DNA of 56,351 bases. Source: a virus. Taxonomy: Duplodnaviria; Caudoviricetes. The first letter of the stretch is position 1. Every line of letters starts with the position of its first letter. The position numbers and the translations under genes are program-made. Where the stretch lies: positions 1 to 56,351 of the IMG/VR virus record IMGVR_UViG_3300012987_000010, one strand, 5' to 3'. The notes beneath the pieces are model-generated. The model was not told where the DNA came from. It saw only the letters and a list, made by a program, of their open reading frames with translations, and did no database searches. Positions 1,566 through 40,517 of this stretch are shown here, in pieces.

Positions 1566-4500
1566 TCACTTCTCGTAGCACGCCGCCCAGTTCGACCCGG
1601 CGGCGGAGCGACCACACGAGATCTGTACCGGGCGCGCCGCGCCGGGCGGAGCCCAGGCGAAGGTCATCGCCGCCATGATCCGCTCCGCGTACTCGTCCGC
1701 CCGGTCGGCGGGGATCGAGCACACGATCTCGTCGTGGACGGTGAACAGGATGGTGCTCCGAACCTCCGGGTCCATGGCGAGGATCGCCTCCACCATCAGG
1801 TCCCGGGTGGTCCCCTGGCCCATCAGCGCCGGACCCTGGGTCCACCCGCGCCCGATCTCCGGCCGCATCATCCGGCCGAAGCCGTTGTCCAGAAGAGCCC
1901 CCGTGTCGGCACGCTCGCGCACCTCCGAACGCCACCGGTTGCGGTCCGGGTACGCCTCCGCCACGGCCTCCAAGTACCGGCGCGCGTGGGCGGAGGCGTC
2001 CTCTTCGGTCATGCCCGTGGCGCCCATGATCAGCTTGGCCAGTCCGGCCAGGCCCATGCCGTAGTTCTCGCCGTGTCCGGCCTTCTTGGCCACCTCCCGA
2101 TACGAGGCGTCCCCGAACACGGCGATCGCGTTCGCCGTGTGGAAGTCGGTGTCACCCTCGAACAGATCCATGTACGCCGTGTCCTGGCAGTGCGCCGCGA
2201 CCGCTCGCGCGTCGATCTGGTCGAAGTCGAACGCGATCATCACGTGACCCTCCTCCGGCAGGAAGATCCCCCGCTCGCGCACCTTGCCCCCGTGCTTGCC
2301 GAACACGGTGAGCCCCGGCCGGGTGATGGACAGTCGTCCGGACGCCTGCTCCGGCGACATGACCGGGTGGACCCGGTCGCCCACCAGGTGCTTGGCGACG
2401 GTGGCGTACACGACGCGCGCGCCGTTGGCCGTGCACATCAGGTCCAGGGCTCGGCGCAGATCCTCGGGGCACCGCTCGTGCTCCATGACCCGGGTCAACG
2501 CGTCGACCTTCGTGGACAGTCGACCCTTGGGGGTGCGCGGAGGGTTGGTCACACCGAACAGTTGCCACAGGTTGCCCAACCACTCGACCCCTTCGGCCGT
2601 GGCCAGGGGCGCCGTGAACGTGACCTGTTCGTCGGGCTTCCGCTTGAAGGTGCGGACGCGGGACAGGGGGAGGCCGTACTCCGCGTTCAGGGTGTCCAGC
2701 GCGGTGATCTTCTGCACCTCCTCCTCCTCCGCCCGCAGGGACAGAAGGTCGGTGTCCACCCGCACACCCCGCAGGGTCATCGATCCGCAGGCCGTGAGGA
2801 ACCGGTGTTCCCGGCGGGTGTAGTCGGTCTGTCCGAACATCGGGGCCAGGTCGCGGGAGAGCCTGACGTCCTGCTCCAGGTAGGCGACGTAGCGCGGGTC
2901 GTCCACGGGGATCAGGTGGTATCCGCCGAACTCCGCCTTCAGTGCCTTCAGATCGCCACCCTTGCCGGCGCCCAGGACGCGTTCGCCCAGGGAGTCCAGG
3001 TCGTAGTGGGTCGCGCCGTTGCCGTGTTTGGCCGACGGGGGGTCGGCCTGACGCGCCACGATCAGCGCGTCGTGGGCCTTGGCCGCGAGTCGCTCGTACA
3101 GCTCCACCGGGTCGGCGTCGCCGTGATGGTGGAGCGCCAGGGCGGGGAGGTCGTACCCGAGGATCCGGTGACCGGTGATCGTGTCGGCCGCCTCCAGGAC
3201 CGACAGAAGCTCCGCCGGGTCGGTCGTGGTCACCGGCTCTCCACCGTCCACGGCGTACCCGCACAGACGCGCGAACGGCCCGCGATCGGCCGTCCAGGCG
3301 AACAACTCGTCGGCGTCCGGCGTCTCGATGTCGAACGCCACCAGAGCGGGCGCCGGAACGTCTTGATCCGTCGGGTCGGTCGGGGGGGTCGGCATGGGCT
3401 CCGGATCGTCCGGCGGGACGTCCGGAGTGTCCGGCGAAGTGTCCGGACCGGACGCTCCGGACACCGGACCGAAGGGGTCCTCCGGCTCCGCCGGCGGGGG
3501 ATCCTCATTGCCGAACCGGAGGCCTACGTACGCCATGTACCGGTCCGAGTCGGGCCGACCGTGGCGACCCCTGGGCCGGCTCAGCGTGGAGGCCGACTCC
3601 CCGGCGTAGACCCGGCGCTTGATCAGCCGCGTCCCGATCTCCGGGTGTCCCAGCAACCGGTTGGCCAGGGTCTTGTCCGACCAGGCCCCGTGACCCAGGG
3701 CCTTCAGGTAATCATTGAATTCGGTCAACAGCTCCTGGGACATGACGTGGTGCTCGGGGTCCACGGTCAGGCTCTCCTGGGCGAACCCGAACAGGACGTC
3801 GTTCGCCTCGCGCCAGGCCCGGGTGTCCCGGTTCACGGAGGCGGGCGCCGGGGGCATGATCCGGTCCAGGGCGTACCACCGGCGCGCCCCTTCGACGAGC
3901 CACGCCAGGACGGCCGTGTGGACGGCCGGATCGGTCTTGACCCGTTGCCTCAACGTCGGGTCGCCGTACGCGTCTCCGGGTCCCTCCAACTCCTTGTCCT
4001 CCGCGAGGTACCTCATGGGAAACGTGAGCTGGAGCAGGCGCCGCCAGGTGCCGTGGTCGGTCTCCGTGACCGACGGCCGGTAGTTGGTGTTGACGATCAG
4101 AGTCGACTGGTTGGGGAAGGTGACGAAGTCGCACCGCATGTAGCGGCCGGTGATGAAGCTTGTCCCCACGGTCGTCTTGAGCGCCGTCACGTTCAGGTGC
4201 TTGTCGTCGGGCAGCTCCTCCACCAGGGCGAGCCGCGTCCCCATCAGGGTCATCAGGTCGGTGGGGTGGTCGTCCGGCCGACCCAGCAGGAGCTTCTGGG
4301 GGACGTAGGACACGTAGCTCCCCACGGCCAGCATGACCGCGTCCATGATCGTGGATTTGCCGTTGGAGCCTCCGCCGTGCATCAGCAACATCACGTCGTC
4401 CGGGGTCATGTGGCCGGTGATCGCCTGCCCCAGGCGCAGCTGGAACCAGTCGCGGACGGACGGGTCGGGCAGCGCTTCGAGCGCCGTGTCCCAGTCGGGG

Positions 4501-5795
4501 TGCGTGGCGCCGGCCACGTAGGGGACGGACGTCGACCGGGTCACCCGTACCTTCGGGTCCGGTGGGGAGAGCCGACCGGTGCGCAGATCCACCGCCCCGG
4601 CCGGGGTGTTGAGGATGTCCGGGTCACCGTCGAAGGTCGTGGGGTCGACCAGGATCTCCGGGTACCCGGACGCCGCCTCCCGGGTGGAGTTGACCTTGCT
4701 GTTGTTCTTGACCACCCGGTACACGTTGACCTCGTCCAGACCGGCCTTCGTGGCGAGGCGACCGGACGTGTGGAGGTCGGTCACCCGGTCGTTGCACCAC
4801 TCCTCCAGCCAGGTCCGGATCTCATGGGTCACCTCCGTCTCCGCGTTGCCGTGCCGCTCCCACAGGTGGCCGTCCCAGGCCATCCATCCCATGGCGCCGG
4901 ACCAGACGTACCTATCGGTCAACAGCCGCTCCACGACCTCCGCCGACAACACCTTGTCGGTCACCAGGTCGGCGGCGGCCGACAGGGCGCGGCTCGCCTC
5001 GGTACGGGTGACGGCCGCCGACTCCGGGATGTCGGTCGTGAGCGTGGCCTCCAGGTCGGCCCTGGTGAATCCGGCCGCCAGGTGGTCGTCCACGCCCTTG
5101 CACTCGGTACCGTCCACGTCGCCGGGAAGGACGGCGATCGCCACGTCGGCACCTTTGGTGTCCCGTAGCCACAGGGCGAACCGCTCCTGGGCCTTGGCCA
5201 CCTCCGGCTTCACGGCCGCGTCCGCGTCGAATACGATCCGGACCTTCCTCCCCTTGACCGGGATCGACTCCCAGTCGGGTTGCGCGGCGCCGGCGGTCTT
5301 CCAGTTCCACACCCCGGCCAGGGACACGGCGCACAGGCCCAGGCCGGTGAGCGCGTCACCCTTCTTGATCCCCTCGGTGATCCACACCGGGACGGCCGGA
5401 TCCTTGATCGCCCCCAGGTTGCGGGGATGGACGTCCAGCGGCGGCGTCCGGCCCACGGGCTGGTCGTACTTGATCGACTTGACCTGACCCTTGTGATCGC
5501 CCGCCTCGCGCGGGACGTCCCACCGAACCTGGCCGGAGACGCGCAATCCCTCCGGGTTGAACGCCGGGACGAACAGCCCCGGGGACACGGCCAGGTGTTC
5601 GCGTGCGCCCCTGGTGAATCGCTCCCCCTCCAGGAGGGCGGCGTGCCCGGCGTCGGCCCGACACAGGGACGCGTAGCCACGCTCGATCACCACCAGGGGG
5701 TCGAGACCCCCGGCCGTCAGTGCCGCGTAGTGCTCGGGCGAGAGTGGGGGGAGTTCCGGTTCGTCGCTCCGGGCGACGGCCGTTGAGTCGGTCAC
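1566..5795 (-). CDS. Fused Toprim (DUF3854-like) primase / D5-P4-type SF3 helicase / 3'-5' exonuclease / family A DNA polymerase (1409 aa)
   Basis: Toprim WITEGIKKGDAL, IVFDAD, KGVDD; SF3 Walker A GGGSNGKST, Walker B ALVEE, motif C NTN; exonuclease FDIET, GHRILGYDL, YLEQDV; PolA motif A DFDQIDAR, motif B REVAKKAGHGENYG, motif C TVHDEIV. Confidence 0.9.
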   Translation of the reverse strand: MTDSTAVARSDEPELPPLSPEHYAALTAGGLDPLVVIERGYASLCRADAGHAALLEGERFTRGAREHLAVSPGLFVPAFNPEGLRVSGQVRWDVPREAGDHKGQVKSIKYDQPVGRTPPLDVHPRNLGAIKDPAVPVWITEGIKKGDALTGLGLCAVSLAGVWNWKTAGAAQPDWESIPVKGRKVRIVFDADAAVKPEVAKAQERFALWLRDTKGADVAIAVLPGDVDGTECKGVDDHLAAGFTRADLEATLTTDIPESAAVTRTEASRALSAAADLVTDKVLSAEVVERLLTDRYVWSGAMGWMAWDGHLWERHGNAETEVTHEIRTWLEEWCNDRVTDLHTSGRLATKAGLDEVNVYRVVKNNSKVNSTREAASGYPEILVDPTTFDGDPDILNTPAGAVDLRTGRLSPPDPKVRVTRSTSVPYVAGATHPDWDTALEALPDPSVRDWFQLRLGQAITGHMTPDDVMLLMHGGGSNGKSTIMDAVMLAVGSYVSYVPQKLLLGRPDDHPTDLMTLMGTRLALVEELPDDKHLNVTALKTTVGTSFITGRYMRCDFVTFPNQSTLIVNTNYRPSVTETDHGTWRRLLQLTFPMRYLAEDKELEGPGDAYGDPTLRQRVKTDPAVHTAVLAWLVEGARRWYALDRIMPPAPASVNRDTRAWREANDVLFGFAQESLTVDPEHHVMSQELLTEFNDYLKALGHGAWSDKTLANRLLGHPEIGTRLIKRRVYAGESASTLSRPRGRHGRPDSDRYMAYVGLRFGNEDPPPAEPEDPFGPVSGASGPDTSPDTPDVPPDDPEPMPTPPTDPTDQDVPAPALVAFDIETPDADELFAWTADRGPFARLCGYAVDGGEPVTTTDPAELLSVLEAADTITGHRILGYDLPALALHHHGDADPVELYERLAAKAHDALIVARQADPPSAKHGNGATHYDLDSLGERVLGAGKGGDLKALKAEFGGYHLIPVDDPRYVAYLEQDVRLSRDLAPMFGQTDYTRREHRFLTACGSMTLRGVRVDTDLLSLRAEEEEVQKITALDTLNAEYGLPLSRVRTFKRKPDEQVTFTAPLATAEGVEWLGNLWQLFGVTNPPRTPKGRLSTKVDALTRVMEHERCPEDLRRALDLMCTANGARVVYATVAKHLVGDRVHPVMSPEQASGRLSITRPGLTVFGKHGGKVRERGIFLPEEGHVMIAFDFDQIDARAVAAHCQDTAYMDLFEGDTDFHTANAIAVFGDASYREVAKKAGHGENYGMGLAGLAKLIMGATGMTEEDASAHARRYLEAVAEAYPDRNRWRSEVRERADTGALLDNGFGRMMRPEIGRGWTQGPALMGQGTTRDLMVEAILAMDPEVRSTILFTVHDEIVCSIPADRADEYAERIMAAMTFAWAPPGAARPVQISCGRSAAGSNWAACYEK

Positions 5796-12948: not shown

Positions 12949-13370
12949 TTCGTCCGGGTCGACCGTGGTATCGGGTGGAGATCCCGTCCTTGCCATTGAT
13001 CAACATCAATGACGAGAAGAGGATGCACTACCGGGTGAGGGGTCCTCGGCGAAAGGCGCTGCGCGAGGCCGCCAAAGAGGCGGCCGAAGGGATACCCACC
13101 CTGGCCCGTGCCCGGGTGATCTGCTACGTGACCCGGTCCATAGGAGGCTACCGCTGGGACCCGAGCAACTGGTATCCCTCCGCCAAGGCGTGTGTGGACG
13201 GGTTCACGGACGCGTGCCTGTGGCCGGACGACAGCGTCCTTCACGTGGTCGGACCCGACATTCGAGGCGTGACGACGGAGAGGGCCACCCCGCACGGTCG
13301 ACTGGTGTTCCGGATCATCGACCTGTCGGACGGCGATCAGGAGGAGGGAGAGGATCCCGATGACGGGTAG
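12945..13370 (+). CDS. rusA: RusA-like Holliday junction resolvase
   Basis: DPSNWYPSAKACVDGFTDACLWPDDS matches the RusA DxxN...K..D...DD motif. Confidence 0.8.
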   Translation: MIRPGRPWYRVEIPSLPLININDEKRMHYRVRGPRRKALREAAKEAAEGIPTLARARVICYVTRSIGGYRWDPSNWYPSAKACVDGFTDACLWPDDSVLHVVGPDIRGVTTERATPHGRLVFRIIDLSDGDQEEGEDPDDG

Positions 13371-13860
13371 GAAGGGTGGCACGTCCACGTGCAAGTGGTG
13401 CCCCAGGAAGGCACTGGTCCGACCCGGTTCCGCCCAGGTGTGCGCGGCGTGCCGCGACCGGATCGACCGGGTGATCCGGGACTCGATCTCCCGGCAGCGC
13501 CGCCTGGGTCTGACCAACGTCGACATGGCTCGTGAGTTCGGGTTCTCCCTGGACACCTGGCGTCGCCTGAAGATCCAGGCGGAGCACAATCCTGACGAAC
13601 CGGTGGTCACCGCCCGGGTCGATCCGCTCCACCGGGAGCTGCGGGAGGCCGACCCGGCGGAGACGGCCCGGCGGTGGGAGCACCGGGCGGCGTGCCGGTC
13701 GGACCCGGACCCGGATCGTTTCTTCCCGGATACCGCCGAGGACCGCGCGGCCATCGATCGGGTGCTCACCGTCTGCATGGAATGCCCGGTCGCCAGGGAG
13801 TGCAGAGCGCACCGGGGGCGCGTGGGGGTGTGGGGAGGGAAGCTCTACGTCCAACTGTGA
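13360..13860 (+). CDS. WhiB-family transcription factor with an N-terminal Zn-finger and HTH extension
   Basis: W...AAC...FFP...CMECPVAREC...GVWGG; N-terminal CKWC/CAAC and LTNVDMAREFGFSLDTW. Confidence 0.85.
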   Translation: MTGRKGGTSTCKWCPRKALVRPGSAQVCAACRDRIDRVIRDSISRQRRLGLTNVDMAREFGFSLDTWRRLKIQAEHNPDEPVVTARVDPLHRELREADPAETARRWEHRAACRSDPDPDRFFPDTAEDRAAIDRVLTVCMECPVARECRAHRGRVGVWGGKLYVQL

Positions 13861-14016
13861 TCCCGTGCGCCGGAAGCCTCCGGAAGTCGTGCCGACTTCC
13901 GGAGGCTTCTGTGATGACAGGCTGTTGACAAGAGTGTAGGGTGGCCAATCCGTGAACGAGACGGAGCCGCGCCCCCTACCCGGACGCGGCTCCCTGTGCC
14001 CCCTGGAGGGACGACC

Positions 14017-15066
14017 GTGCGATCCGAGACTACCCGCCGAGCAAGTGTTCGAACCGTTGTCGTGCCGGAGCTTCCGACCAGGACCCCGTCGGCCCGGGAG
14101 CCGGCGCTCAAGATCTACGACAACCTCCTGGGTGTACTCGGCGTGGTCGGCACCGCCGTATCGGGATGGTCGATCGCCACCCTCCTCCACGAGGAGGGTG
14201 GCATGCCGTGGTACCTGGCCGGCCTCGGAGTCGGCGTGTACGACCTCCTGGCCTTCATGGCCGGCCTCATGGTCTACATCCGCCGACACGAGCCCCACCG
14301 GGCCGTGGGCGCCCAGGTGCTCATGCTCGCCGCCGTGGCGGGGAGCGCCTACGTGAACTACATGCACGGTCGACAGATCGGCGGCGACCTGGTGGCGCTC
14401 CTCCTGGGTGCGGCCCCGGTGGTGTTCGAAGTCGCGTTTGCCATGCGGCACAACGTGCTGACCCTGGTGACGGCGACCCTGTTCCCCAGGGCCATGTGGA
14501 GCCGGTACAAGGACGGCGTGTGGGTCAAGCTCCACACCGGCAGCCTTCCGGCAGCTTCCGGCGACCTTCCGGCAGAGCTTCCGGAGCCTTCCGGAGGATC
14601 CCTGGTGTGGCCTTCCGGTGAGGTGACCCTCCTTCCGGAGGCCCCCGGCATGTCGCCGGAGGGCGTGGCTCGGAAGGCCGCCGCCCTGGCCGACGAGCTG
14701 GAGGCCGGGCACCGCGAGACGATCTCGGAAGCCGTCCGGAGGCTCACTCCGGCAACCTTCTCGGAAGCTTCCGGAGGCATGCCGGAGGATCCGGAAGTCG
14801 CCATGGAGTGGGCAAAGGCGCGGTCCGAGACGATCCGGAAGATCGGCGGATCGGCGATCTCGGAGGACTCTCCGGAAGCTGCCGGAAGGCTGCCGGAGTC
14901 TCCGGCGGAGCGTGCGGAGGCCGTGGCGGAAGCCCTCCGGAAGGGTGAGCGGATCACCGGTGAGACCGTGGCCGCCTTGTACGGCGTGTCCGACCGGACC
15001 GGTCGCGACTACATCCGACGGGCCAAGGCGATCAACGCCGCCAGGTCGGAAGGGTCGGAGCGGTGA
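14017..15066 (+). CDS. Spd-like (DUF2637-type) plasmid-spread membrane protein with C-terminal HTH
   Basis: Four N-terminal hydrophobic segments, low-complexity linker, then GERITGETVAALYGVSDRTGRDYI HTH; coupled to the FtsK-type gene; start may be 13996. Confidence 0.65.
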   Translation: MRSETTRRASVRTVVVPELPTRTPSAREPALKIYDNLLGVLGVVGTAVSGWSIATLLHEEGGMPWYLAGLGVGVYDLLAFMAGLMVYIRRHEPHRAVGAQVLMLAAVAGSAYVNYMHGRQIGGDLVALLLGAAPVVFEVAFAMRHNVLTLVTATLFPRAMWSRYKDGVWVKLHTGSLPAASGDLPAELPEPSGGSLVWPSGEVTLLPEAPGMSPEGVARKAAALADELEAGHRETISEAVRRLTPATFSEASGGMPEDPEVAMEWAKARSETIRKIGGSAISEDSPEAAGRLPESPAERAEAVAEALRKGERITGETVAALYGVSDRTGRDYIRRAKAINAARSEGSER

Positions 15067-16583
15067 GCCCGCCGTGTCCCGAGGTGAAAGCCCCCGCGAT
15101 CGCGGGGGCTTTCCTCACCGCAGCTCCCTGGGCCGCCGACGCCCTGGGAGCCGGGTCCGAGTACGGCTTGGCCGGCGTCGCCATGGCGACCGCCGGCCTC
15201 GGCGCGGTGCCCTTCTCCCTGCGGACCGGGGAGGCGCCCACGGCGGTCTCCCTGGCCGGTCTCGGCGGCGTGGCCTGGGGATCCTGGACGGCCTGGGCGT
15301 GCTGGTCCGACGCTCCCACGCCGGGGCGCGTCCTCCTGGGCGTCTTCCTCACGGCCGCCTCGGTGGCCGCCGGAGCGGTGGTCCGGTGGCGGACCCTCGG
15401 CACGCCGCTGGAGCGGGCGAGGCTGGACCTGGAGCGAGCGCGCCTGGCGAAGGCTTCCGGAGGCCTTCCGGACGCCTCCGGAGACTCGCCGGAAGACCTC
15501 CGGAAGACTCCGGAAGACGTGTGGGAGGAGCTTCCGGAGGTCACCTGGGAGCCTCCGCTCCGGACGCCGGACACCTGTGACCCCGTCGACGTCGGAGGCG
15601 GCGTGGTCGTCCCCCTGGTGGGAGGTCACGTGATCATGGGGGGCGCCACGGGCGCGGGAAAGTCGGTGTTCCTGGCCGACTTCATCGCCGACCTGTTGCC
15701 CCGGCGGAACCTGAGGATCACGGTGATCGACCCCAAGGGCGACGCCCTCCTGGGCATGCTGCGCAACAGCCGCGTCCGGATGGTCGATCCGGAGGACGCG
15801 GACGCGGTGATGTCCGAACACCTGGCCACGATGAAGCGCCGGGGCGACCTGGTCCGCGCCGCCGCCGACGCGTACACCAGGAATCCGGTGGGCGACCCGC
15901 CACCGGACCACTGGGAGCCGACGGAGGAGGAGCCCTGGGAGGTGGTCATCGTGGACGAGTTCACGGACTTCGGCGGCACCGACACCATGGAGTTCATCGT
16001 GGAGATGGCTCGCAAGTCCAGGTCGCTCGGGCAGACCCTGATGCTCGCGACACAGACCCTGGACGCGGCGCTGTTCAAGTCGGAGAAGGCTCCGTCCGGA
16101 GGCGGCCCCAGGTCCCAGTTCGGCACCCGGGTGGCCGGCCGCGTGGACAACTCGGCGGAGGCGGAGAAGATCTTCGGGGAGCGCCAGGCCAAGGTCTGGC
16201 AGCCCCACATGATGCCCGGCCGGGGTCACGTCCTGGTCCGGTCGGAGGACCAGCGGGAACCGGTCATGCGCCGAGTGCCGTACATGGACAAGGCGACCCT
16301 GGCGGCGTGGGCCCGACGGTGTTCCGACGGTGTTCCGACGGCGTTCATACCGGCCCAGCGGGACGGCGGCCGGCATCTGTCCCTGGTCCCGGCCGCCGCC
16401 CCGATCACCCAGGCGGACACCGTCCTGGGGTGGCTGGAGGAGCACGGACCGGCCTCCGCCGTGTCCGTGTCGGTCGCCACCGGAGTGCCCCAGGGATCCG
16501 TCAGGACGGTCCTCAAGCGCCTGGCGGACCAGGGGTGCGTGTCCAGAACGGACGGCCTCTGGGAGGCCGTGACAAGGCCGTGA
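15063..16583 (+). CDS. traB: TraB-like FtsK/SpoIIIE DNA translocase
   Basis: N-terminal TM segments; Walker A GGATGAGKS, VIDPKG, Walker B VVIVDEF, ARKSRSLG, LATQ, PGRG; C-terminal winged helix (ATGVPQGSVRTVLKRLADQG). Confidence 0.8.
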   Translation: MSPPCPEVKAPAIAGAFLTAAPWAADALGAGSEYGLAGVAMATAGLGAVPFSLRTGEAPTAVSLAGLGGVAWGSWTAWACWSDAPTPGRVLLGVFLTAASVAAGAVVRWRTLGTPLERARLDLERARLAKASGGLPDASGDSPEDLRKTPEDVWEELPEVTWEPPLRTPDTCDPVDVGGGVVVPLVGGHVIMGGATGAGKSVFLADFIADLLPRRNLRITVIDPKGDALLGMLRNSRVRMVDPEDADAVMSEHLATMKRRGDLVRAAADAYTRNPVGDPPPDHWEPTEEEPWEVVIVDEFTDFGGTDTMEFIVEMARKSRSLGQTLMLATQTLDAALFKSEKAPSGGGPRSQFGTRVAGRVDNSAEAEKIFGERQAKVWQPHMMPGRGHVLVRSEDQREPVMRRVPYMDKATLAAWARRCSDGVPTAFIPAQRDGGRHLSLVPAAAPITQADTVLGWLEEHGPASAVSVSVATGVPQGSVRTVLKRLADQGCVSRTDGLWEAVTRP

Positions 16584-16723
16584 CAGCCATCGTGACAACC
16601 GTTCCTGTCACGCCCCTGTCACGGTGGTTGTCACGGCTCGTGAGCTGGGATGTCACGCTGTCACGCGAGCACGCGACAAGCCCCCGGATCCACCAGGATC
16701 CGGGGGCTTGTCGCGTTGTCACG
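16568..16723. repeat. clt-like array of nine CGTGACA/TGTCACG heptamers plus a hairpin terminator
   Basis: CGTGACA at 16568, 16579, 16591; TGTCACG at 16606, 16617, 16629, 16651, 16659, 16717; hairpin 16671-16716. Confidence 0.75.
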
Positions 16724-25134: not shown

Positions 25135-25392
25135 GTGAGCGAGTACCCGGCGGACATGCGGCGGATCCTGATCACCCTGGACATCGGAGGCCGTGAGCGG
25201 ACCCGTACCGTGGACACCCCGGCGGACTGGCCCGGCCTGTCCGACGAAGGCCGCCGGGGGTGGGCGACCTCCCGGTGCGAGGAGTTCGTGTTCGAGCACG
25301 TGGACGTGACCTGGTCCGACCCGGACGAGAAACTGGACCCGTACGACTGGCCGACCTCCTGGGACGGCCGGACCGGGGACCGGGTCGAGTGA
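25135..25392 (+). CDS. Hypothetical protein (85 aa)
   Basis: AGGAGG RBS; coupled to terL. Confidence 0.6.
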   Translation: MSEYPADMRRILITLDIGGRERTRTVDTPADWPGLSDEGRRGWATSRCEEFVFEHVDVTWSDPDEKLDPYDWPTSWDGRTGDRVE

Positions 25393-26849
25393 CCGATCGT
25401 CTGGCCCGGTCGTTCCTCCAGGACGCGGCGGAGGTCCTGGACGCCCCTGAGATCGACTATCTGAGGGACCCGGTCCTCTGGGCCCGGGACAAGCTGGATA
25501 CGGTCCTGTGGGAGCGTCAGAGGGCCATCGTGACGTCCGTGCGGGACAACCCCAGGACCGCCGTCCCGTCCTGCCACTCCACCGGCAAGAGCCACGTGGC
25601 TGCCACCGTGGTCTGCTGGTGGCTGGACGTGCACCGCCCGGGGGACGCCTTCGTGCTCACCACCGCTCCCACCGGAGCCCAGGTGAAGGGCATCCTCTGG
25701 CGGTACATCAATCGCATGCACAAGCGGGGGAAGCTGCGCGGACGGGTCAACCTGACGGAGTGGTACATCGACGGTGAGCTGGTCGCCCTGGGTCGCAAGC
25801 CCGCCGATCACGATCCGACCAACCTGTCCGGCTACCACGCGCCCCGGTTCCTGATCGTCGTGGACGAGGCGTCGGGCGTGAGCCTGGAGATCTGGGACGC
25901 CCTGTCCACCCTGGTTGCCGGTGGCGCCCACGTCCGCGTCCTGGCCATCGGCAACCCGGACCAACCCACCGGTGAGTTCGCCGACATCTGCAAGGCCGGC
26001 TCCGGCTGGAACGTGATCCGCATCGGATACATGGACACCCCGGCCTGGACCGGGGAGGACGTACCGCCGGACGTCCTGTCCTCGCTCATCCAACCGGATT
26101 GGGTGGAGGATCGCCGTCGCCGTTGGGGCGAGAGATCTGCGCTGTTCCAGGCCAAGTGCCTGGGCCGGTTCCCCACCCAGGGCTCCCAGTTCGCCGTCGT
26201 GCCGCACGACCTGGCCACGGCGTGCCGCTACCTGGACCTGCCGGACGGCCATCCCCATCAGGCCGGCGTCGACGTCGCCGCCGGTGGGGACCGCACCATC
26301 GTGCGCGAGCGTCGCGGGGCCAAGGCCGGCCGGGTGGTGGAGTTCGTGGACCCCGACCCGATGCGGACGGTTGCGGCCGTTCTGGAGGCCTTGAAGTCCT
26401 GGGGGGTCCGGAAGGTCAAGGTCGACTCGATCGGCGTCGGGTGGGGCGTGTACGGCTCCCTGAAGGGCGCCCTGGCGGCCGACGGTGTGGAGGTCGTCCC
26501 GGTCAACTTCGGGGCCGGTCCCGGGGAGGGCTTTGAGGATCGCTACCTGAACCTGCGTGCCAGGGTGTGGTGGGAGGTCGGCCGGGAGAACAGCCGGTTG
26601 CAGCACTGGGACCTGGGCGCGTGCGACGACGACGTGATCAACGAGTTGACCGCCCCGGAGTACGTGATCCTGGACAACAAGGGGAAGATCAAGATCGAGC
26701 CCAAGGCGGACGTCATCCGACGCCTGGGCGTCAGCCCCGACCACGCGGACGCGCTTCTCCTGGCCTTCTGGGATCCGCACACCGCCATGTCGCTGCCCTC
26801 CACGCTGTCCCAGCTGCTCTCCACGGACCTGCTCCGGGGCATCAGGTAG
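25389..26849 (+). CDS. terL: Terminase large subunit
   Basis: SCHSTGKS Walker A, LIVVDEA Walker B, IGNP, GVDVAAGGD, SPDHADA. Confidence 0.9.
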   Translation: MTDRLARSFLQDAAEVLDAPEIDYLRDPVLWARDKLDTVLWERQRAIVTSVRDNPRTAVPSCHSTGKSHVAATVVCWWLDVHRPGDAFVLTTAPTGAQVKGILWRYINRMHKRGKLRGRVNLTEWYIDGELVALGRKPADHDPTNLSGYHAPRFLIVVDEASGVSLEIWDALSTLVAGGAHVRVLAIGNPDQPTGEFADICKAGSGWNVIRIGYMDTPAWTGEDVPPDVLSSLIQPDWVEDRRRRWGERSALFQAKCLGRFPTQGSQFAVVPHDLATACRYLDLPDGHPHQAGVDVAAGGDRTIVRERRGAKAGRVVEFVDPDPMRTVAAVLEALKSWGVRKVKVDSIGVGWGVYGSLKGALAADGVEVVPVNFGAGPGEGFEDRYLNLRARVWWEVGRENSRLQHWDLGACDDDVINELTAPEYVILDNKGKIKIEPKADVIRRLGVSPDHADALLLAFWDPHTAMSLPSTLSQLLSTDLLRGIR

Positions 26850-35001: not shown

Positions 35002-38000
35002 ATGACGCTGTTGTCGATCGTTGCGATTCCCCGTGACGAGCTGGACGCGATCGCCGAACGGTTCGCCACCGACGTCGTGGCCGCCCTGGTCGACACCCTG
35101 GCGGAGGGTTTCGGGGGCACCCCCGACGCGATGACGGCCGCCGGGTGGCTGGAAGCCTTCCGGCGCAATCCGAGACCGCCGGCCCCCGCCGACCTGGCGT
35201 CCCTGCGCACCCTGTGGGGGCGCAGGGTCACGGCCTTGGCCGACCGGATCCGATCGGTCTACGGTCGGTCCGTCCTGGCCGTCCGAGACCAGGCGATCCC
35301 GGCCGTGGCCGAACCTCCCGATTGGCGGTCGCGCATCGGCGAGGGCCCGAGCGCCGCGCCCGACTGGCGGACTCTGGTGTCCGAGGGAATGCCGGTGGTG
35401 CCGCCGGCTGCCGCCGATCCGGTCATGGAGGTGGTCTGGCGCAATCTCACGACCCTGGGGGACGAGCTGTTCGACGAGGTCGCGGCGCAGATCCAGGAGG
35501 GCGCGCGCCTGGGTGAGGACGTCGACGCGATCTCCCTACGGGTACAGCGCGTCGTGGGCAACGCCATGTGGCGCGCCAAGCGCATCGCCCGCACCGAGAT
35601 GACCCGGGCGGCGAACAACGCGTCCCTTGCCGAGATGCTGTTCTCCGGCTTGGACGGCTCGAAGCGTTGGGTGTCCAACGAGGACAACCGGGTGCGTCCG
35701 ACCCACCGGGAGGCCGACGGCCAGGAGGTTCCGATCCGGGAGACCTTCGACGTCGGGGGATTCCCACTGCTCTACCCGGGGGATCCGACCGGCCCGCCCG
35801 GCGAGACGATCAACTGTCGATGCGACTTGGCGCACGTGGTGCCCACGGAGCAGACTCCCGATTGGGCGTCGAACCTGGGGGCCGGACCGATGTCGCCCCG
35901 CGCCGGGGAGTGGCCGCCCGACACCCTGGAGGAATGGATGACCGATCCGGTGCCGGACAACCCCGCGTTCCCACCGTTCGAGGAACTGACGGCGGACGGG
36001 GCGTTCCAGTCCACGATGCCGCCCAAGCTGAAGGCGTATTGGCTGGCCGGAGAGGGAGCGGCCAAGATCCGATGGGGTACCCCGGGATCGTTCGACCGAT
36101 GCGTCCGCGCGCTGGGTCCCAAGTTCCCCGGCAACCCCCAGGGCCTCTGCGCCAACCTGTACCACGAGGCCACGGGCCGTTGGCCCGGCGCCGGTCGCGG
36201 CGAGGGGTCGTTGGCCGCAGCATCCGAGATCCACACCGGGGCCATGGTCGCCCTGGTCCCGTCGGCCGCCGACGCGGCGCGTCTGGTGGCCGACGGGGGC
36301 GAACCGATCGATCAGCTTCACATGACCCTGATGTACCTGGGCGACGCCGATCTGTACTCGGAGAATGCGCGCGAGTCCATCCGGGAGCGGATGATGTCGC
36401 ACCCGTTCACCGGGCCGATCACGGCGGACGCGTTCGCCGTGAACGTGTTCAACCCCGGTGACGCGACCGACCGGGACCCGTGCGTCGTCATGGGCCTTTC
36501 GGGCGGGGAACTGTCGCATGTGCACGGGTTCGCCCGCCAGGCATTGGACTACGAACTCGAACACATGGCGCCGCCCCAGCACGAGCCCTGGATCCCGCAC
36601 GTCACCCTGGCGTACACGGACGACATGACTCGCGTGTCGGAGTTCGCCGACCGGGTGGGACCGGTCACCTTCGACAACATCCTGGTGGCCTTCGGCGACG
36701 ACCACTACTACATCCCCCTGGGTGCGCCGGTCCCGGACGTGGCCATGGAACCCCTGCCGGACATGCCCGAGCCCGAGCCCGAGCCGATGCCGTGGCCCGA
36801 GGGATCGTTCCAGGCGATCATCACCGTGGAGGGGATCGAGACCGGAGACTCCCGGGCCTTCCTGCCGAACGCACTCACCGTGGCACCGGGCACATGGCTG
36901 GAGTTCAACTGGCAGCCCCGGATCAAGGAGGGCCATGAAGATGCCGTCCTGGTCGGCCGCCTACACGATGTGTGGCGTGAAGACGATGGGTCGATCATGG
37001 CTCGGGGTTGCTTCGACGTGAACGGCGAACACGGGCGCGAGGCCATGCGCCTGGTTCGAGAGAACTTCCTGAAGGGCGTCAGTGTCGACCTGGACACCGT
37101 CGTGGTGGAGGAGTTCTACGACGATCCGGAGTCGGACCGCGCGTCGTTCGAGCTGTATCACCAGGGTCGTATCCGGGGAGCCACGCTGGTGACCTACCCG
37201 GCGTATGTGGAAGCCCAGATTTGGATGACGGAGGGAACGCCGATGGAAGCCGGCCAACCTGGGGACATGGGCCTGGTCGCGTCCGGCGACCCGGTGGCCC
37301 TGGTCGCGGCGGCCGTGAAGAGCCACGACACCCCCACCACGGACACGGCCTGGGACGGCGCGGCGGCCGTCAAGCGGCTGCCCTCCCCGATGTCCCTGGA
37401 GACCGCCAGGAACGCCTTCGCCTGGATCGACGAATCCGCCGTCACGGACGGGGAAGTGCCCAAGTCGGCGTGCAAGTTCCCCCATCACGAGGTGTCGACG
37501 GACGGCACCCCGGGCGCGGCCAACCTGGCGGCGTGTTCCGCCGGCATCGCCGTCCTGAACGGCGGGCGCGGTGGGACGAACATCCCGGCCGCCGACGTCA
37601 AGGGCGTCTACGATCATCTGGCTCGACACATCCGTGACGCCGACAAGGAACCGCCCGCACTGGCGGCGTCGGCTCTGGTCGCCTGTGGTTGCGACGACAC
37701 CTGGGAACCGCCGACGGACGAGATGTTCACGGATCCCGGGTTCACCCGGTTCACCCCGCCGACCCTGACGGCGGACGGCCGATACTTCGGCCATGCGGCC
37801 GAATGGGAGACGTGCCACACCGGGGTTCAGGGCACGTGTCGCAAGCCTCCCCGCGAGGGTGGCGAGCACGCGTATTTCCGCCTGGGTGAGGTGATCACGG
37901 CGTCCGGCTCCTCACTCGCAGTCGGTCACATCACCATGGGCATCGGTCACGCCCCGCTCACACCCGGCTTCAGCGCGGCGGCGGCGATCGAGCACTACGA

Positions 38001-38376
38001 CAACGTGAACGCCGTAGTCGCCGATGTCGTGTCGGGTGAAGACGCCTTCGGCATCTGGTTCTCCGGCCGGGTCCGGCCGCATGTGACCGAAGCGCAACGG
38101 GCCTACTTGAGGTCGGCCACACTGTCGGGTGACTGGCGGTCGTTCGGCGGAAAGCTCCGCCTGGTCGCGATGTTGGCCGTGAACGTCCCGGGCTTCCCGG
38201 TCCCGCGCCTGGCGACCGGGACGTCCGCCGGGAGGCAGTTCGCCCTGGTGGCCGCCGGCATCCCCACCCAGCGGAACACCTTGTCCGTTGTCATGTCATC
38301 CTTGCAACGACGACTCGGGCGCGACAGCGTCACTCGTCGCAATGCCCTGATCGACAGGGTCCACGGGAAGGAGTGA
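35002..38376 (+). CDS. Polyprotein: MuF-like minor head domain, 2H phosphoesterase and capsid maturation protease-type domains
   Basis: MuF IARTE, KRW..NED.RVRPTH, ETINCRC; 2H LHMTL and PHVTL; protease-like GVSVDLD/GATLVTYPAY; C-terminal LSGDWR...VNVPGFPVPR. Confidence 0.8.
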   Translation: MTLLSIVAIPRDELDAIAERFATDVVAALVDTLAEGFGGTPDAMTAAGWLEAFRRNPRPPAPADLASLRTLWGRRVTALADRIRSVYGRSVLAVRDQAIPAVAEPPDWRSRIGEGPSAAPDWRTLVSEGMPVVPPAAADPVMEVVWRNLTTLGDELFDEVAAQIQEGARLGEDVDAISLRVQRVVGNAMWRAKRIARTEMTRAANNASLAEMLFSGLDGSKRWVSNEDNRVRPTHREADGQEVPIRETFDVGGFPLLYPGDPTGPPGETINCRCDLAHVVPTEQTPDWASNLGAGPMSPRAGEWPPDTLEEWMTDPVPDNPAFPPFEELTADGAFQSTMPPKLKAYWLAGEGAAKIRWGTPGSFDRCVRALGPKFPGNPQGLCANLYHEATGRWPGAGRGEGSLAAASEIHTGAMVALVPSAADAARLVADGGEPIDQLHMTLMYLGDADLYSENARESIRERMMSHPFTGPITADAFAVNVFNPGDATDRDPCVVMGLSGGELSHVHGFARQALDYELEHMAPPQHEPWIPHVTLAYTDDMTRVSEFADRVGPVTFDNILVAFGDDHYYIPLGAPVPDVAMEPLPDMPEPEPEPMPWPEGSFQAIITVEGIETGDSRAFLPNALTVAPGTWLEFNWQPRIKEGHEDAVLVGRLHDVWREDDGSIMARGCFDVNGEHGREAMRLVRENFLKGVSVDLDTVVVEEFYDDPESDRASFELYHQGRIRGATLVTYPAYVEAQIWMTEGTPMEAGQPGDMGLVASGDPVALVAAAVKSHDTPTTDTAWDGAAAVKRLPSPMSLETARNAFAWIDESAVTDGEVPKSACKFPHHEVSTDGTPGAANLAACSAGIAVLNGGRGGTNIPAADVKGVYDHLARHIRDADKEPPALAASALVACGCDDTWEPPTDEMFTDPGFTRFTPPTLTADGRYFGHAAEWETCHTGVQGTCRKPPREGGEHAYFRLGEVITASGSSLAVGHITMGIGHAPLTPGFSAAAAIEHYDNVNAVVADVVSGEDAFGIWFSGRVRPHVTEAQRAYLRSATLSGDWRSFGGKLRLVAMLAVNVPGFPVPRLATGTSAGRQFALVAAGIPTQRNTLSVVMSSLQRRLGRDSVTRRNALIDRVHGKE

Positions 38377-38378
38377 CC

Positions 38379-38600
38379 ATGGCTTGCGGATGCAACAAGC
38401 GCCAGAAGACCCAGGTGACGTCGATCGAAGTGGTCGCCATGCAGGAGGCGGAGCGCGCGGCACAGGCGGCGGCCGACGCCCTGGCGATCGAGGCGGCCAG
38501 GTCGGCGACCGACGACTACCTTCGCAACGCCGCGTATGAGGACTCCGCGCGAGCGACGGAGGAACACTTCCGGAAGACGCTGGAGGAGCAGGCGTCCTAG
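38379..38600 (+). CDS. Small head-associated protein (MACGC motif)
   Basis: AAGGAG RBS; MACGCNK N-terminus. Confidence 0.55.
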   Translation: MACGCNKRQKTQVTSIEVVAMQEAERAAQAAADALAIEAARSATDDYLRNAAYEDSARATEEHFRKTLEEQAS

Positions 38601-38747
38601 AATGTGGTCGAGCCCACGGGGGTTCGGAAAGAAGCCGTGACGGTCCTGGCCGTCACGGCTTCTTTCTGCACTGATCGTTCCGGTGTACCTTGCCATCAGT
38701 GAATGTCACACTTGCCGATGGAAGATCACCAACTGTCAGGGGTCACC

Positions 38748-40517
38748 GTGAGTGAAACCACCATCCCCGCCGACCTCACCGGACTGACCCTCGATCAGTT
38801 GCGTGAGTTGGAGGCGCAGGTCACGGAGGAGTTCGACAGGCTGACGGCGGACGAGTCGCCCAGCGTCGAAGCTCTGGCACGGGCAACCGTCCTGGCCGAC
38901 ACCGTGGAAGCGATCCGTGCGGACGTCGTCCGCCGGGAAGACGAGTCCCGGAAGGCCACCGAACAGCGCGACGCGCTGAAGGCGCGCATGACCGCCCCGG
39001 TGGAAACCTCTCCGGAGGCCGTGGTGGATACCCAGCCGGAGACGACCCCGGAGGTTCCGGAAGTCGTGGTCGACACTCCGGAAGGGGAGGTCACCGTGCC
39101 CAACAGCCCGGAGCAGTTGGCGGAACTGGTGGCCGCCGCGTCCACGGCCGCCGTCAAGGCCGCAATGGAGCACTACACTCCGGCGACCACGAAGCCGGCG
39201 ACGGAGACCGCGCGCAAGCTCAACCCGACCATGGCGGAGATCTCCGCCAGGGCGCCGAAGATCGAGGCTCCCCGCCAGGAGTCGGTCATCGTGGCGTCGG
39301 CGGACATCCCCGGTTTCACCTCCGGTGGCCGACTCACGGATTACCGGGGAATCCGTCAGGCGATGCACAACCGGGCCCGTGTCATGGAGGACGGCCGGGG
39401 CAGCGGTAGCCGAGTCCCGATCGCCTCTCTGAAGCGTGATCACGGTGTGACCCTCCAGCCGGAGTACGAGCCGGACAAGTTGGCCCAGGTGCTGGATCGG
39501 GTCGCCGACCCGGCAGCCCTGATCGCGGCCGGTGGCTGGTGCGCCCCGTCCGAGATCGACTACGACTTCTTCAACATCGTGTGCATCGACGGTCTCCTGG
39601 ACCTGCCGACCGTCGGTGTCAACCGGGGCGGCATCCGGTGGCCGATCTCTCCCAGCTACGCGGACATCGTGGGCAACTCCGGCCTGTGGCACTGGACGGA
39701 GACCCAGGACGCCGCCGCCGTCACCGGTACCGCACAGTCGGGTACCAAGACTTGTACCCGGGTTCCGTGCCCGACCTTCCTGGAAGCGCGTTTGGCGTGT
39801 GACGGGCTGTGCCTCACGGCCGGCAACCTGACCAACGACGCTTACCCGGAGCTGACGGACAACTTCCTCAACCTCCTCCAGGCGGGTCACGCGCACAAGG
39901 TGAACACCTTGCGCATCGCCCAGCTCGTCGCCGCGTCGATCGCCGTGTCCGGAACCACCGGCCTCGGGTCGGGTACCTCCGGTGTCGTGGCCCCGGTGCT
40001 CAACGCGATCGAGATGCAGGCGATCGACTACCGCGAGCTGTACCGCATGTGCACCGATGCCGTCCTGGAGGTCGTCCTCCCCCGGTGGTTGCGTGGCGAG
40101 ATGCGCGCGGACCTTCGCCGTCGGACCGGCATCGACGTGGAAGCGTTCGCGGACGCCTACCTGATGAGTCTGTTCGACGCGATCAACGTCAGGATCCAGT
40201 GGGTCTCCGACTGGCAGGTGGGCGGCGTCGGCCCGAGCACCTTCCAGTTCGGAGGTCTCACCCCCATCACCGCGTGGCCGAACAAGGTGCAGTTCCTCTT
40301 GTTCGCGCCGGGGACCTTCGTCCTGGGTCGCGGCCTCACACTCGACCTGGGCATCATCCGGGACTCCACCCTCAACGCGACCAACGATTACACGGCGGCG
40401 TGGATGGAGGAGTGCTGGCTGATCGCGCAGCGGGGCCACACCAGCCGACTCGTCACCGTCAACATCTGCCCGAACGGCACGACCGGCGCGGCGAACTACA
40501 CCGCGTGCGACCTCTGA
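38748..40517 (+). CDS. Major capsid (hexamer-type) protein with N-terminal scaffold-like region
   Basis: Helical N-terminus, then ALIAAGGWCAPSE, LDLPTV..RGGI, TLDLGIIRDSTLNATNDY; start may be 38703. Confidence 0.8.
   Translation: MSETTIPADLTGLTLDQLRELEAQVTEEFDRLTADESPSVEALARATVLADTVEAIRADVVRREDESRKATEQRDALKARMTAPVETSPEAVVDTQPETTPEVPEVVVDTPEGEVTVPNSPEQLAELVAAASTAAVKAAMEHYTPATTKPATETARKLNPTMAEISARAPKIEAPRQESVIVASADIPGFTSGGRLTDYRGIRQAMHNRARVMEDGRGSGSRVPIASLKRDHGVTLQPEYEPDKLAQVLDRVADPAALIAAGGWCAPSEIDYDFFNIVCIDGLLDLPTVGVNRGGIRWPISPSYADIVGNSGLWHWTETQDAAAVTGTAQSGTKTCTRVPCPTFLEARLACDGLCLTAGNLTNDAYPELTDNFLNLLQAGHAHKVNTLRIAQLVAASIAVSGTTGLGSGTSGVVAPVLNAIEMQAIDYRELYRMCTDAVLEVVLPRWLRGEMRADLRRRTGIDVEAFADAYLMSLFDAINVRIQWVSDWQVGGVGPSTFQFGGLTPITAWPNKVQFLLFAPGTFVLGRGLTLDLGIIRDSTLNATNDYTAAWMEECWLIAQRGHTSRLVTVNICPNGTTGAANYTACDL

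Follow-up and report, generated by a model that had tools for sequence, protein, structure and literature searches.

A clustered array of CTTCCGG sites in the linker-coding segments of a membrane protein and an FtsK-fold translocase of a tailed actinophage: a putative clt-like or centromere-like locus

Why should a tailed phage carry 22 copies of one 7-bp word within and beside the genes of a membrane protein and of an FtsK-like translocase, and which protein would read them? We addressed this question in a viral DNA of 56,351 nucleotides (IMG/VR record IMGVR_UViG_3300012987_000010), hereafter the window, for which an earlier note made from the bare sequence had reported about 22 CTTCCGG/CCGGAAG sites between positions 13870 and 15537. 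Our recount gave exactly 22 (3 + 13 + 6), and every coordinate that the note had listed was matched (Table 1). Pfam and PHROG scans of the ORFs established that the window is a complete tailed actinophage, with portal, capsid, terminase and tape-measure genes, which contradicts the idea that the element is a plasmid or an AICE. In four soil/rhizosphere sequencing runs, the contigs are short, near-identical pieces of the same phage that differ at two positions, in one contig each (14502 C>T and 14797 G>T, the latter within a site), so that no population signal can be drawn from them.

Table 1. Coordinates of the features of the locus (positions in the window).
Feature	Position	Strand	Description
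WhiB-like gene (P0003)	13360..13860	+	166 aa; Pfam Whib 43 bits, residues 106-160; PHROG WhiB families
Upstream group	13870(-), 13880(-), 13896(+)		3 exact sites
Inverted repeat	13871..13911	.	19-bp stem, motif-built (CCGGAAG, CCTCCGGAAG / CTTCCGGAGG); between whiB stop and ORF A
ORF A (P0001)	14017..15066	+	Four long hydrophobic helices, ~130-residue disordered linker, C-terminal three-helix HTH
Array 1	14545..14943		13 exact sites and one-mismatch sites; linker-coding part of ORF A, residues 184-316
Array 1, + sites (8)	14545, 14555, 14566, 14578, 14588, 14612, 14632, 14768	+	
Array 1, - sites (5)	14791, 14835, 14872, 14882, 14937	-	
ORF A C-terminal HTH coding region	14902..15060	+	P0001 residues 303-355; candidate array reader
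ORF B (P0002)	15063..16583	+	FtsK/SpoIIIE-fold: N-terminal helical membrane anchor, disordered linker, motor, C-terminal winged helix
Array 2	15454..15537		6 exact sites: 15454(+), 15465(+), 15489(-), 15500(-), 15510(-), 15531(+); ORF B linker-coding, residues 131-159
ORF B winged helix coding region	16410..16568	+	P0002 residues 450-502; candidate array reader

We assessed whether the sites are enriched over background. The 22 sites of 13870-15537 compare with 23 across the remaining 54.7 kb, a difference of about 30-fold, and the 45 sites of the whole window compare with 11.5 ± 3.5 (maximum 20) in dinucleotide shuffles, 0 of 100 of which reach 45. The k-mer comparison that the earlier note had proposed gave the same answer, CTTCCGG ranking first by unbiased count in 13860-15545, about 30-fold over elsewhere. 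Longer forms are also concentrated in this interval: CTTCCGGA occurs 15 times inside and 7 times outside (65-fold), and CTTCCGGAGG, a 10-bp imperfect palindrome that is the commonest extended site in this phage, 9 times inside and once outside. The strand of the sites changes along the window: of all sites, those left of 14780 number 14 '+' and 4 '-', those right of it 7 '+' and 20 '-' (Fisher p 0.0009). The second cluster, at 15454-15537, switches as well, as had been noted, in the order + + - - - +. The orientation switch is real at this locus, but it is absent from the plasmid arrays described below, and in relatives the palindromic pairs implied by the peptides blur it; it may be non-functional.

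The spacing of the sites had been taken to break codon phase and to place the constraint on the DNA rather than on the protein, and both points held. Adjacent sites are mostly 10-12 bp apart, they fall in frames 0, 1 and 2 in both ORFs, and they use both strands. When synonymous codons were resampled with the proteins held fixed and phage codon usage (5000 draws per ORF), 1.50 ± 1.11 sites were expected in ORF A, where there are 13, and 1.03 ± 0.94 in ORF B, where there are 6; 0 of 5000 draws gave as many in either ORF. Permuting the own synonymous codons of each ORF raised the expectation to 2.47 in ORF A and gave 0.97 in ORF B, and again 0 of 5000 reached the observed number. The sites are spelled with codons that are rare in the genome (CTT for Leu, GAA for Glu, GGA for Gly). 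Two of them, 14937 ('ALRKG') and 15531 ('ELP'), may be held by the protein too, since the residues they overlap are conserved across the protein families. In AF2 models, 12 of the 13 sites of ORF A and 5 of the 6 of ORF B fall in low-confidence (predicted disordered) segments or at their edge; in ORF A, the pLDDT of the segment is below 60 for 12 of the 13. The best explanation of this placement is that the array occupies the sole nearby DNA that tolerates sites, namely the disordered-linker coding segments of the two ORFs and the intergenic hairpin.

The hairpin upstream of ORF A contains 3 exact and 2 one-mismatch sites, and its RNA fold is highly stable (-42.6 kcal/mol, z -6.9), 0 of 200 shuffles being equally stable. 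It could be an operator, a terminator devoid of a U-tract, or both. A consensus scan of the locus detected no promoter or terminator, and no Rfam family was found in 13300-16700. A perfect TTGACA at 13926-13931 has no good -10 partner.

The two proteins had been named spd and traB. The longest frame of ORF A opens at 13996, and translation probably begins with the GTG at 14017, which follows a GGAGG and matches the starts of relatives. Its score against Pfam DUF2637 (PF10935) is 22.3 bits, 0.5 under the cut-off of 22.8; plasmid DUF2637 proteins score 22.0-24.8 bits against the same model, and residues 55-185 of ORF A share 45% identity with the DUF2637 protein of plasmid pRL2 (E 3e-18). This homology to annotated plasmid members indicates that ORF A belongs with DUF2637. 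The C-terminal domain matches HTH_23 at 18 bits and is modelled by AF2 with pLDDT above 90 as helices 303-315, 322-329 and 333-355; a Foldseek search with the ORF A model, which is of low confidence outside this domain, gave no match at E <= 0.001. A membrane protein with a predicted HTH is present as described, but it is DUF2637-like and the name spd is an analogy only. In the literature searched, no function for DUF2637 was found, and an array in the linker is not a known trait of the family. The GTG start of ORF B overlaps the stop of ORF A (GTGA). ORF B scores 31.2 bits against Pfam FtsK_SpoIIIE (cut-off 24), and the closest structure to its AF2 model is the E. coli FtsK motor 2ius (E 1.3e-13), followed by TcpA and EccC. 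Long helices at residues 6-132 are predicted, from their hydrophobicity, to insert into the membrane, and the linker segment 132-149 has pLDDT below 50. The winged helix has an H-H-H-E-E topology (AF2, pLDDT ~90) and sub-threshold Pfam matches to MarR_2 (25.9, cut-off 27) and TrmB. Although the FtsK fold is there, the name traB was overstated: ORF B reaches 20.2 bits against NCBIfam plasmid_TraB (NF041214), whose cut-off is 800, and so stands outside the plasmid TraB family, and tblastn against plasmids returned matches in the P-loop region alone, at 25-28% identity. Against GenBank phages, blastn and tblastn found nothing for the locus or P0001, and weak P-loop matches to Bacillus phages for P0002.

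If the word rather than the peptide is under constraint, relatives should show it. Among 19 members of the ORF A family, mean pairwise identity is 0.83 in the membrane domain and 0.70 in the HTH against 0.39 in the linker. Yet CTTCCGG is the top 7-mer compatible with the linker peptide (of ~3000-4700) in 15 of the 19, the window's protein included, and ranks second after the overlapping CGGAAGC in 3 more, giving 18/19. The most distant member, P0048, is best fitted by GTTCCGG. The relatives' linker peptides span 5-6 frame/orientation classes (LPE, SG, FRK, PEA, GS, RK), and CTTCCGG appears, as judged from peptides, to be kept in hypervariable linkers. In the ORF B family, 2 of 24 members have a motif-compatible linker corresponding to array 2. 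A protein-only test of 38 more distant representatives gave 14 with a top 7-mer that 0 of 100 composition-preserving shuffles reached; the top 7-mers differ between proteins, and one word so inferred, TGTCCGC, is common to DUF2637 proteins with two unrelated types of C-terminal domain. Searches of viral, metagenome and genome contigs (queries P0002 and alignment A1) gave no confirmed relative locus. The pattern CTTCCGG-N3-6-CTTCCGG-N3-6-CTTCCGG matched at least 116 stretches in viral contigs, and a homologue of P0001, P0002 or P0003 accompanied none of those listed. A 20-mer of two palindromes had no viral locus and 23 metagenome loci, among which there was no real homologue and one 57-residue low-complexity match. 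Several of these metagenome loci resemble non-coding tandem arrays in low-G+C, microsatellite-rich DNA.

The sole plasmid homologues found are the DUF2637 genes of three Streptomyces plasmids, which lie in transfer-like regions; in one of these plasmids an annotated TraB is encoded just downstream. In 2 of the 3 genes, the same linker is written with an array of another word. In pRL2, GGCGGAC occurs 11 times against 3.0 expected by codon permutation (0/2000); in the NBC_01353 plasmid, 21 of the 22 GCGCTCA sites of the locus are within the DUF2637 gene against 4.1 expected (0/2000), in three frames and on both strands. The third plasmid has CGAGACC 16 times against 10.5 (4/2000), mostly in one frame, and this array could be a repeat at the protein level.

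Arrays read by translocases are known. For loading and orienting, the pumps FtsK and SpoIIIE read 8-bp words (KOPS and SRS, respectively) with their C-terminal winged helix (gamma domain); these words are non-palindromic, chromosome-wide and strand-skewed. In contrast, the phage sites crowd into 1.7 kb, and the sites beyond the array show no significant strand skew (+:- of 5:2 left versus 4:12 right; Fisher p 0.066). A further likeness is to the clt regions of conjugative Streptomyces plasmids and AICEs, described as direct 8-bp repeats recognised by the C-terminal wHTH of TraB (PMC4447253, PMC3583192, PMC5365140): 8-bp repeats in pSVH1, nine 9-bp repeats plus inverted repeats in pJV1, and, in pWTY27, four 7-bp repeats that overlap traA at its end (PMC4447253, PMC3583192). 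TraB-clt (pSVH1, pJV1, pWTY27) shares with our locus a membrane-anchored FtsK-family motor with a C-terminal winged helix, and 7-9-bp words repeated in or beside the translocase gene, here 22 within 1.7 kb. It differs in that the carrier here is a tailed phage and ORF B is far from the TraB equivalog model, that instead of direct repeats there are quasi-palindromic sites in mixed orientation, and that the 22 copies, of which binding is putative, are mostly inside the neighbouring membrane-protein gene, coding and in three frames. In pIJ101, sps palindromes within spdA2 are described as affecting segregational stability but not transfer; a small spdA gene contains 2-3 copies of sps, a perfect palindrome of 12 bp (CGTCACGTGACG-type), and SpdA is depicted as small and soluble, its DNA-binding region being N-terminal and conserved, with no membrane domain (PMC4170104). 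The likeness, again as far as that account goes, is that the sites lie in the DNA-binding protein's own coding sequence and are conserved across divergent elements (PMC4170104); by description, word, copy number and protein architecture are all unlike our locus. In Streptomyces, SmeA is reported to target the SffA translocase to septa (PMC5859096), and SpdB2, a membrane protein of four helices, to bind both dsDNA and TraB and to have actinophage homologues (PMC4447253). By description, SmeA-SffA and SpdB2-TraB share with our locus a membrane-protein gene followed by an FtsK/SpoIIIE-like translocase gene in one operon, but the parts consulted describe no sequence-specific site array (PMC5859096, PMC4447253). 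In the literature searched on FtsK-like genes of actinobacteriophages and on such membrane proteins, no description of site arrays of this type was found.

On balance, we favour, at somewhat better than even confidence, the reading that the 22 CTTCCGG sites are a cis-acting, clt-like or centromere-like array to which a protein of a two-gene membrane DNA-translocation module would bind. A sequence-specific domain of the module would bind many sites spaced about one helical turn apart; this would anchor the stretch of phage genome at the membrane and load the DNA on a hexameric pump, which would drive double-stranded phage DNA through the septum or between compartments, much as TraB uses 8-bp clt repeats in Streptomyces plasmids and SmeA positions SffA. 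The copy in the upstream hairpin suggests that the same binder probably also regulates the operon. What the phage would gain is conjectural, because no plasmid or lysogenic sign was seen among the scanned ORFs.

Which domain would read the array? The earlier note had offered the HTH or, alternatively, the winged helix of the translocase; protein-binding sites are indeed the best reading and both domains are predicted, but the two readers were not separated. We give close to an even chance to the C-terminal HTH of the membrane-anchored ORF A, acting alone or with the other domain; the C-terminal winged helix of the ORF B translocase, likewise alone or with the HTH, is a serious candidate that we also place short of even. 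The two domains are about equally conserved (mean identity 0.63 for the winged helix, 0.70 for the HTH), and conservation therefore does not separate them. Likewise, six translocase-membrane protein pairs have one common word, leaving no covariation with which to name the reader. The sharing of TGTCCGC across two types of C-terminal domain argues mildly against the ORF A HTH, while the HTH gains mild support from the P0048 variant and from the universal linkage of the array to ORF A itself. The WhiB-like gene immediately upstream (P0003) is otherwise context, its product being a third, less likely candidate DNA binder.

The main reading of the earlier note, that the sites serve the ORF A HTH alone as a self-encoded tether, centromere or autoregulatory locus that the translocase does not read, is in our view unlikely. 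It would fit the presence of the array in the ORF A gene in 18/19 family members (as inferred from peptides) and in 2/3 plasmid DUF2637 genes, the quasi-palindromic sites, for which relatives' peptides (LPEASGS, FRKLPE) imply full palindromes, and the motif-built hairpin upstream of the operon. P0048, with its variant word, also departs at nearly invariant HTH positions (R341K, N347I), but it is the most diverged member overall, so that this single case of covariation is confounded. Against a role for the HTH alone stand the six further sites in the translocase gene's own linker and the common TGTCCGC of proteins with unrelated C-terminal domains. The SpdA2/sps precedent on pIJ101, as given in the part consulted (PMC4170104), speaks for it, but the motif differs from sps and ORF A is by description unlike SpdA. 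Nor did the scanned ORFs give any sign of plasmid persistence that would need partition: no lysogeny or plasmid-maintenance gene was found among them, and neither a ParA nor a ParB domain was detected in ORF A, ORF B, P0003 or 27 other ORFs (Pfam, PHROGs), which leaves the suggestion that the array stands in for ParABS unsupported.

The remaining explanations are weaker still. Phage lambda has its ori within gene O, the gene of its binding protein, and the phi29 membrane protein p16.7 serves in membrane attachment of replicating phage DNA; a replication element, whether iteron-like sites in the binder's gene or a membrane attachment site, would accord with an array in the linker-coding segment of a gene for a predicted DNA-binding protein that joins a membrane anchor to a small helical domain, in the same early, replication-side part of the genome as the polymerase-primase, helicase and exonuclease genes (1.5-9.8 kb). 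We nevertheless hold it very unlikely: there is no A+T-rich unwinding region, bin 14001-16000 being the G+C peak of the genome (0.711), the cumulative GC skew does not turn at 14-15 kb, the sites are of 7-10 bp and not 17-22 bp, the conserved partner gene encodes a translocase and not a replication protein, and the plasmid transfer-like regions with the same architecture have separate replication genes. That the array has no function at the DNA level, as a by-product of a Pro/Glu/Ala/Ser/Gly/Leu-rich low-complexity linker or of slippage, is hardly credible, even if linkers are compositionally biased and indel-variable among relatives and the plasmid CGAGACC case is mostly single-frame; the resampling (1.5 and 1.0 expected against 13 and 6) largely refutes it, all three frames and both strands are used, three further sites are non-coding in a perfect hairpin, and relatives, going by their peptides, keep the word and not the peptide. 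Just as improbable is a pac or terminase-recognition region, or a restriction-modification cluster. Phage pac sites can be short repeated boxes within a gene, and two palindromes, CCGG and TCCGGA, lie in the core of the word; the array region has 17 of the 66 TCCGGA copies in the window. However, the conserved word extends asymmetrically (CTT) past this core, the large terminase gene (25260-26849) is 10 kb from the array, neither flanking gene is small-terminase-like, no methyltransferase or nuclease was seen adjoining, and equivalent arrays occur in plasmid homologues, which do not package DNA.

FtsK-like genes are a frequent annotation in actinophages but are assigned no function; two Streptomyces-phage papers just list them or guess at replication, and the notion of phages borrowing spreading proteins from plasmids is one speculative sentence (PMC4447253). 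The favoured reading, a clt-like or centromere-like array, makes this idea testable, since the locus provides a concrete cis element beside an FtsK-like pump. It is also a first functional lead for DUF2637, and a clear case of coding sequence that carries, overprinted, a regulatory or structural DNA code; a disordered linker is what makes this tolerable at the peptide level. A broader and rather doubtful proposal is that a family of tailed actinophages carries a complete, self-specified, conjugation-like module (membrane tether, FtsK-fold pump and in-linker array) that moves virion-free DNA, the DUF2637 proteins of plasmids and phages in actinobacteria being self-addressed DNA tethers. If so, naked phage DNA would cross septa or cell junctions without virions; the disordered linker would be the translated recognition array of the element, the array would evolve together with the length of the tether, and every element would have a word of its own. 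Should element-specific words prove general, the clt-type loci and the specificity groups of actinobacterial mobile elements could become predictable directly from sequence.

A count of CTTCCGG and its complement gave 45 sites in the window, 22 of them within 13870–15537, where every site coordinate listed in the earlier note proved exact; dinucleotide shuffles of the window yielded 11.5 ± 3.5 sites, with a maximum of 20. We then counted all 6- to 10-mers without bias in the interval 13860–15545 and in the remaining 54.7 kb. CTTCCGG was the top word of the interval (22 inside versus 23 elsewhere), so that the local enrichment proposed in that note holds, at about 30-fold; CTTCCGGA occurs 15 times inside versus 7 elsewhere, and CTTCCGGAGG 9 times versus once. 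In an alignment of the 22 sites, the invariant CTTCCGG is followed by A (15/22), G (16/22) and G (13/22), and this 3′ preference makes CTTCCGGAGG, the extended site, an imperfect palindrome of 10 bp centred on CCGG. Adjacent sites are mostly 10–12 bp or 20–24 bp apart. The switch of orientation described previously is real at about 14780 (14 '+' to 4 '−' on the left versus 7 to 20 on the right over the whole window, p 0.0009), but outside the array it is not significant (5:2 versus 4:12, p 0.066), and it is absent from the arrays of the Streptomyces plasmids examined. A secondary cluster of five sites at 38567–39084 (38567+, 38570−, 38948−, 39057− and 39078−) lies where a 75-aa ORF ends and the major head protein gene begins; its 38567+/38570− pair forms the sole full CTTCCGGAAG palindrome of the window. 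Dense non-coding tandem arrays of CTTCCGGAAG were also seen in metagenome contigs (L125, 7–295; L128, 305–885; also L137, L139 and L118/L123), with 28 half-sites in 1.5 kb and 41 in 1.9 kb; these contigs (48–58% G+C) carry CA/TG microsatellites and lack clear genes. They have no relation to the phage genes and probably represent satellite DNA of eukaryotic origin.

Thirteen of the sites lie in ORF A, a membrane protein gene, and six in ORF B, an FtsK-fold translocase gene. ORF A scores 22.3 bits against the DUF2637 model, 0.5 under the cut-off, and shares 45% identity over its membrane domain (E 3e-18) with the DUF2637 protein encoded on pRL2, a linear Streptomyces plasmid. AlphaFold2 (AF2) models the membrane part poorly, residues ∼167–297 as disordered, and residues 303–355 as a C-terminal three-helix domain with pLDDT above 90, which matches HTH_23 weakly. 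ORF B passes Pfam FtsK_SpoIIIE but falls very far short of the plasmid TraB equivalog in NCBIfam, at 20 bits versus a cut-off of 800. Its AF2 layout comprises helices (6–132), a disordered stretch (132–149), a motor (175–421) and a winged helix (450–502); the motor structure best matches that of E. coli FtsK (2ius, E 1.3e-13), then TcpA and EccC.

Coordinates of the two genes and of the upstream hairpin in the window
Feature	Position	Description	Folding energy
ORF A	likely start 14017, end 15066	long hydrophobic helices, DUF2637-like	
ORF B	15063–16583	start overlaps ORF A stop	
Motif hairpin, 19-bp stem	13871–13911	non-coding, three CTTCCGG sites	−42.6 kcal/mol, z −6.9

In both genes the sites fill frames 0, 1 and 2 and both strands. 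When the protein sequence was fixed and codons were redrawn from the phage's own usage, ORF A was expected to hold 1.50 ± 1.11 sites versus 13 observed and ORF B 1.03 ± 0.94 versus 6; permutation of each gene's own codons gave 2.47 and 0.97, and none of the 5000 draws of either kind reached the observed numbers. This excludes the explanation that the sites are a mere by-product of low-complexity linkers. Low-confidence or disordered segments, or their edges, hold all ORF A and ORF B sites but one in each gene (12 of 13 and 5 of 6); these two exceptions, at 14937 ('ALRKG') and 15531 ('ELP'), coincide with residues that are conserved. Codons that this genome seldom uses, GAA, GGA and CTT among them, are also needed to spell the sites; CTT accounts for 23 of the 659 Leu codons counted over eleven long genes. 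Thus, the sequence constraint acts on the DNA and not on the protein, as the earlier note had suggested.

Relatives of the two proteins are solely metagenomic (23 for ORF B and 21 for ORF A, 38–84% identity), and conservation of the array was inferred from their peptides by counting, per linker, the positions where codon choice could spell each 7-mer. Although the linker is the least conserved part of the ORF A family (mean identity 39% versus 83% for the membrane domain and 70% for the HTH), CTTCCGG is the top compatible word of about 3000–4700 in 15 of 19 ORF A proteins (14/18 without the window's own) and comes second in three more, behind the overlapping CGGAAGC. In the remaining one, P0048, the most distant member, it ranks 82nd and the best word is the one-base variant GTTCCGG. 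The compatible peptides span five or six frame and orientation classes, and LPEASGS and FRKLPE strings would imply back-to-back full CTTCCGGAAG palindromes in relatives. A motif-compatible linker is found in only 2 of 24 translocase family proteins, the window's and its closest relative; hence the ORF A array is conserved and the ORF B array a recent extension.

On plasmids, homologues of the membrane domain of ORF A were confined to the DUF2637 genes of three Streptomyces plasmids. In pRL2 (NC_007927.1, L140 9528–9876), where a P-loop protein with weak FtsK/HerA matches lies 3′ of the DUF2637 gene, 11 of the 26 GGCGGAC sites on the plasmid fall within the linker, versus 3.0 by codon permutation (0/2000). 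In the NBC_01353 plasmid (NZ_CP108353.1, L141 4411–5057), 21 of the locus's 22 GCGCTCA sites fall within the DUF2637 gene, in three frames and on both strands, versus 4.1 (0/2000). The S. pseudovenezuelae plasmid, with an annotated TraB directly downstream, is a weak case because its CGAGACC sites (16 versus 10.5, 4/2000) are mostly in one frame. A profile search of 1.84 billion representatives returned 41 relatives; among the 38 with a tail of at least 50 residues, the best 7-mer was reached by 0/100 composition-preserving shuffles in 14. Their best words differ, TGTCCGC (3/14), TGAGCGC and TTCCGGA among them, and in two of the 14 one frame dominates, so these may be peptide repeats. Given the plasmid arrays and these distant proteins, a linker motif array looks like a recurrent feature of this protein family, with element-specific words.

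The window is the whole of a virus record of 56,351 bp and 68% G+C. Among its products are a portal, a MuF-like protein and a major head protein (35% identity to Gordonia phage counterparts), a large terminase, tape-measure and tail proteins, a fused polymerase-primase, a helicase and an exonuclease. The carrier is therefore a tailed actinophage rather than a plasmid or AICE. None of the scanned ORFs, which were part of the full set, looked like an integrase, repressor or partition gene. In soil and rhizosphere metagenome runs from four separate studies, short contigs identical or nearly so to parts of 13300–16700 recur, and this phage, or a near-clone of it, thus seems to be widespread; a single run carries G>T at 14797, within a motif site. 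Elsewhere, a 1409-aa ORF (1566–5795, minus strand) encodes a family A DNA polymerase fused to primase-helicase-type domains (DUF3854, D5_N and DUF5906), and a 1124-aa ORF (35002–38376) carries both a Mu F-like head-morphogenesis domain and a 2′-5′ RNA ligase superfamily domain. In the WhiB-like protein (13360–13860), the WhiB domain is preceded by an N-terminal extension of 100 residues that contains a Cys-rich stretch (CKWC...CAAC) and an HTH-like segment; 10 bp separate the end of its gene from the motif hairpin.

The closest documented system to the array and its two genes is TraB-clt, in which a membrane-anchored FtsK-like pump is described as translocating double-stranded plasmid DNA and recognising repeated 8-bp clt words through its C-terminal wHTH (PMC4447253, PMC3583192, PMC5365140). 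SpdA2 is reported to have its sps binding sites inside its own gene, with a role in stability (PMC4170104), SmeA to place the translocase SffA at septa as a membrane protein (PMC5859096), and a remark in PMC4447253 holds that SpdB2 homologues on actinophages might aid the spread of phage DNA. On these precedents, the array is most likely the cis-acting handle of a putative membrane DNA-translocation module. An origin or replication anchor is unlikely, since the region is the most G+C-rich bin, shows no skew turn and has a pump as its conserved partner; a pac or restriction-related site does not fit, the gene neighbourhood and the plasmid parallels both being discordant with it. If the array is such a handle, it could be read at one-turn spacing by the tethered HTH of ORF A, the winged helix of the pump, or both, and the upstream hairpin may have a second role as operator.

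Both binders named in the earlier note are present as predicted folded domains, about equally conserved in their families, and are near-equal candidates for the reader of the array. We place the HTH first, at not quite an even chance: the array always lies within ORF A's own gene, the sites tend toward palindromes, and P0048, the sole protein with a variant word, also deviates at nearly invariant HTH positions, a covariation confounded by its overall divergence. The winged helix, a strong second candidate, is favoured by the TraB precedent, by the six sites in ORF B's own linker and by the inferred word TGTCCGC, shared among DUF2637 proteins whose C-terminal domains are of two unrelated types. 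That neither domain reads the array seems improbable.

FtsK-family pumps, short repeated recognition words and sites within a binder's own gene are known kinds. In the literature searched, DUF2637 is barely named and the phrase 'TraB recognition sequence' was not found, and two Streptomyces-phage papers name FtsK-like genes in passing only. What is new here is the tailed phage as carrier, the overprinting of the array on disordered-linker coding sequence in three frames, and the link, in phages as well as in plasmids, to DUF2637, an uncharacterised family.
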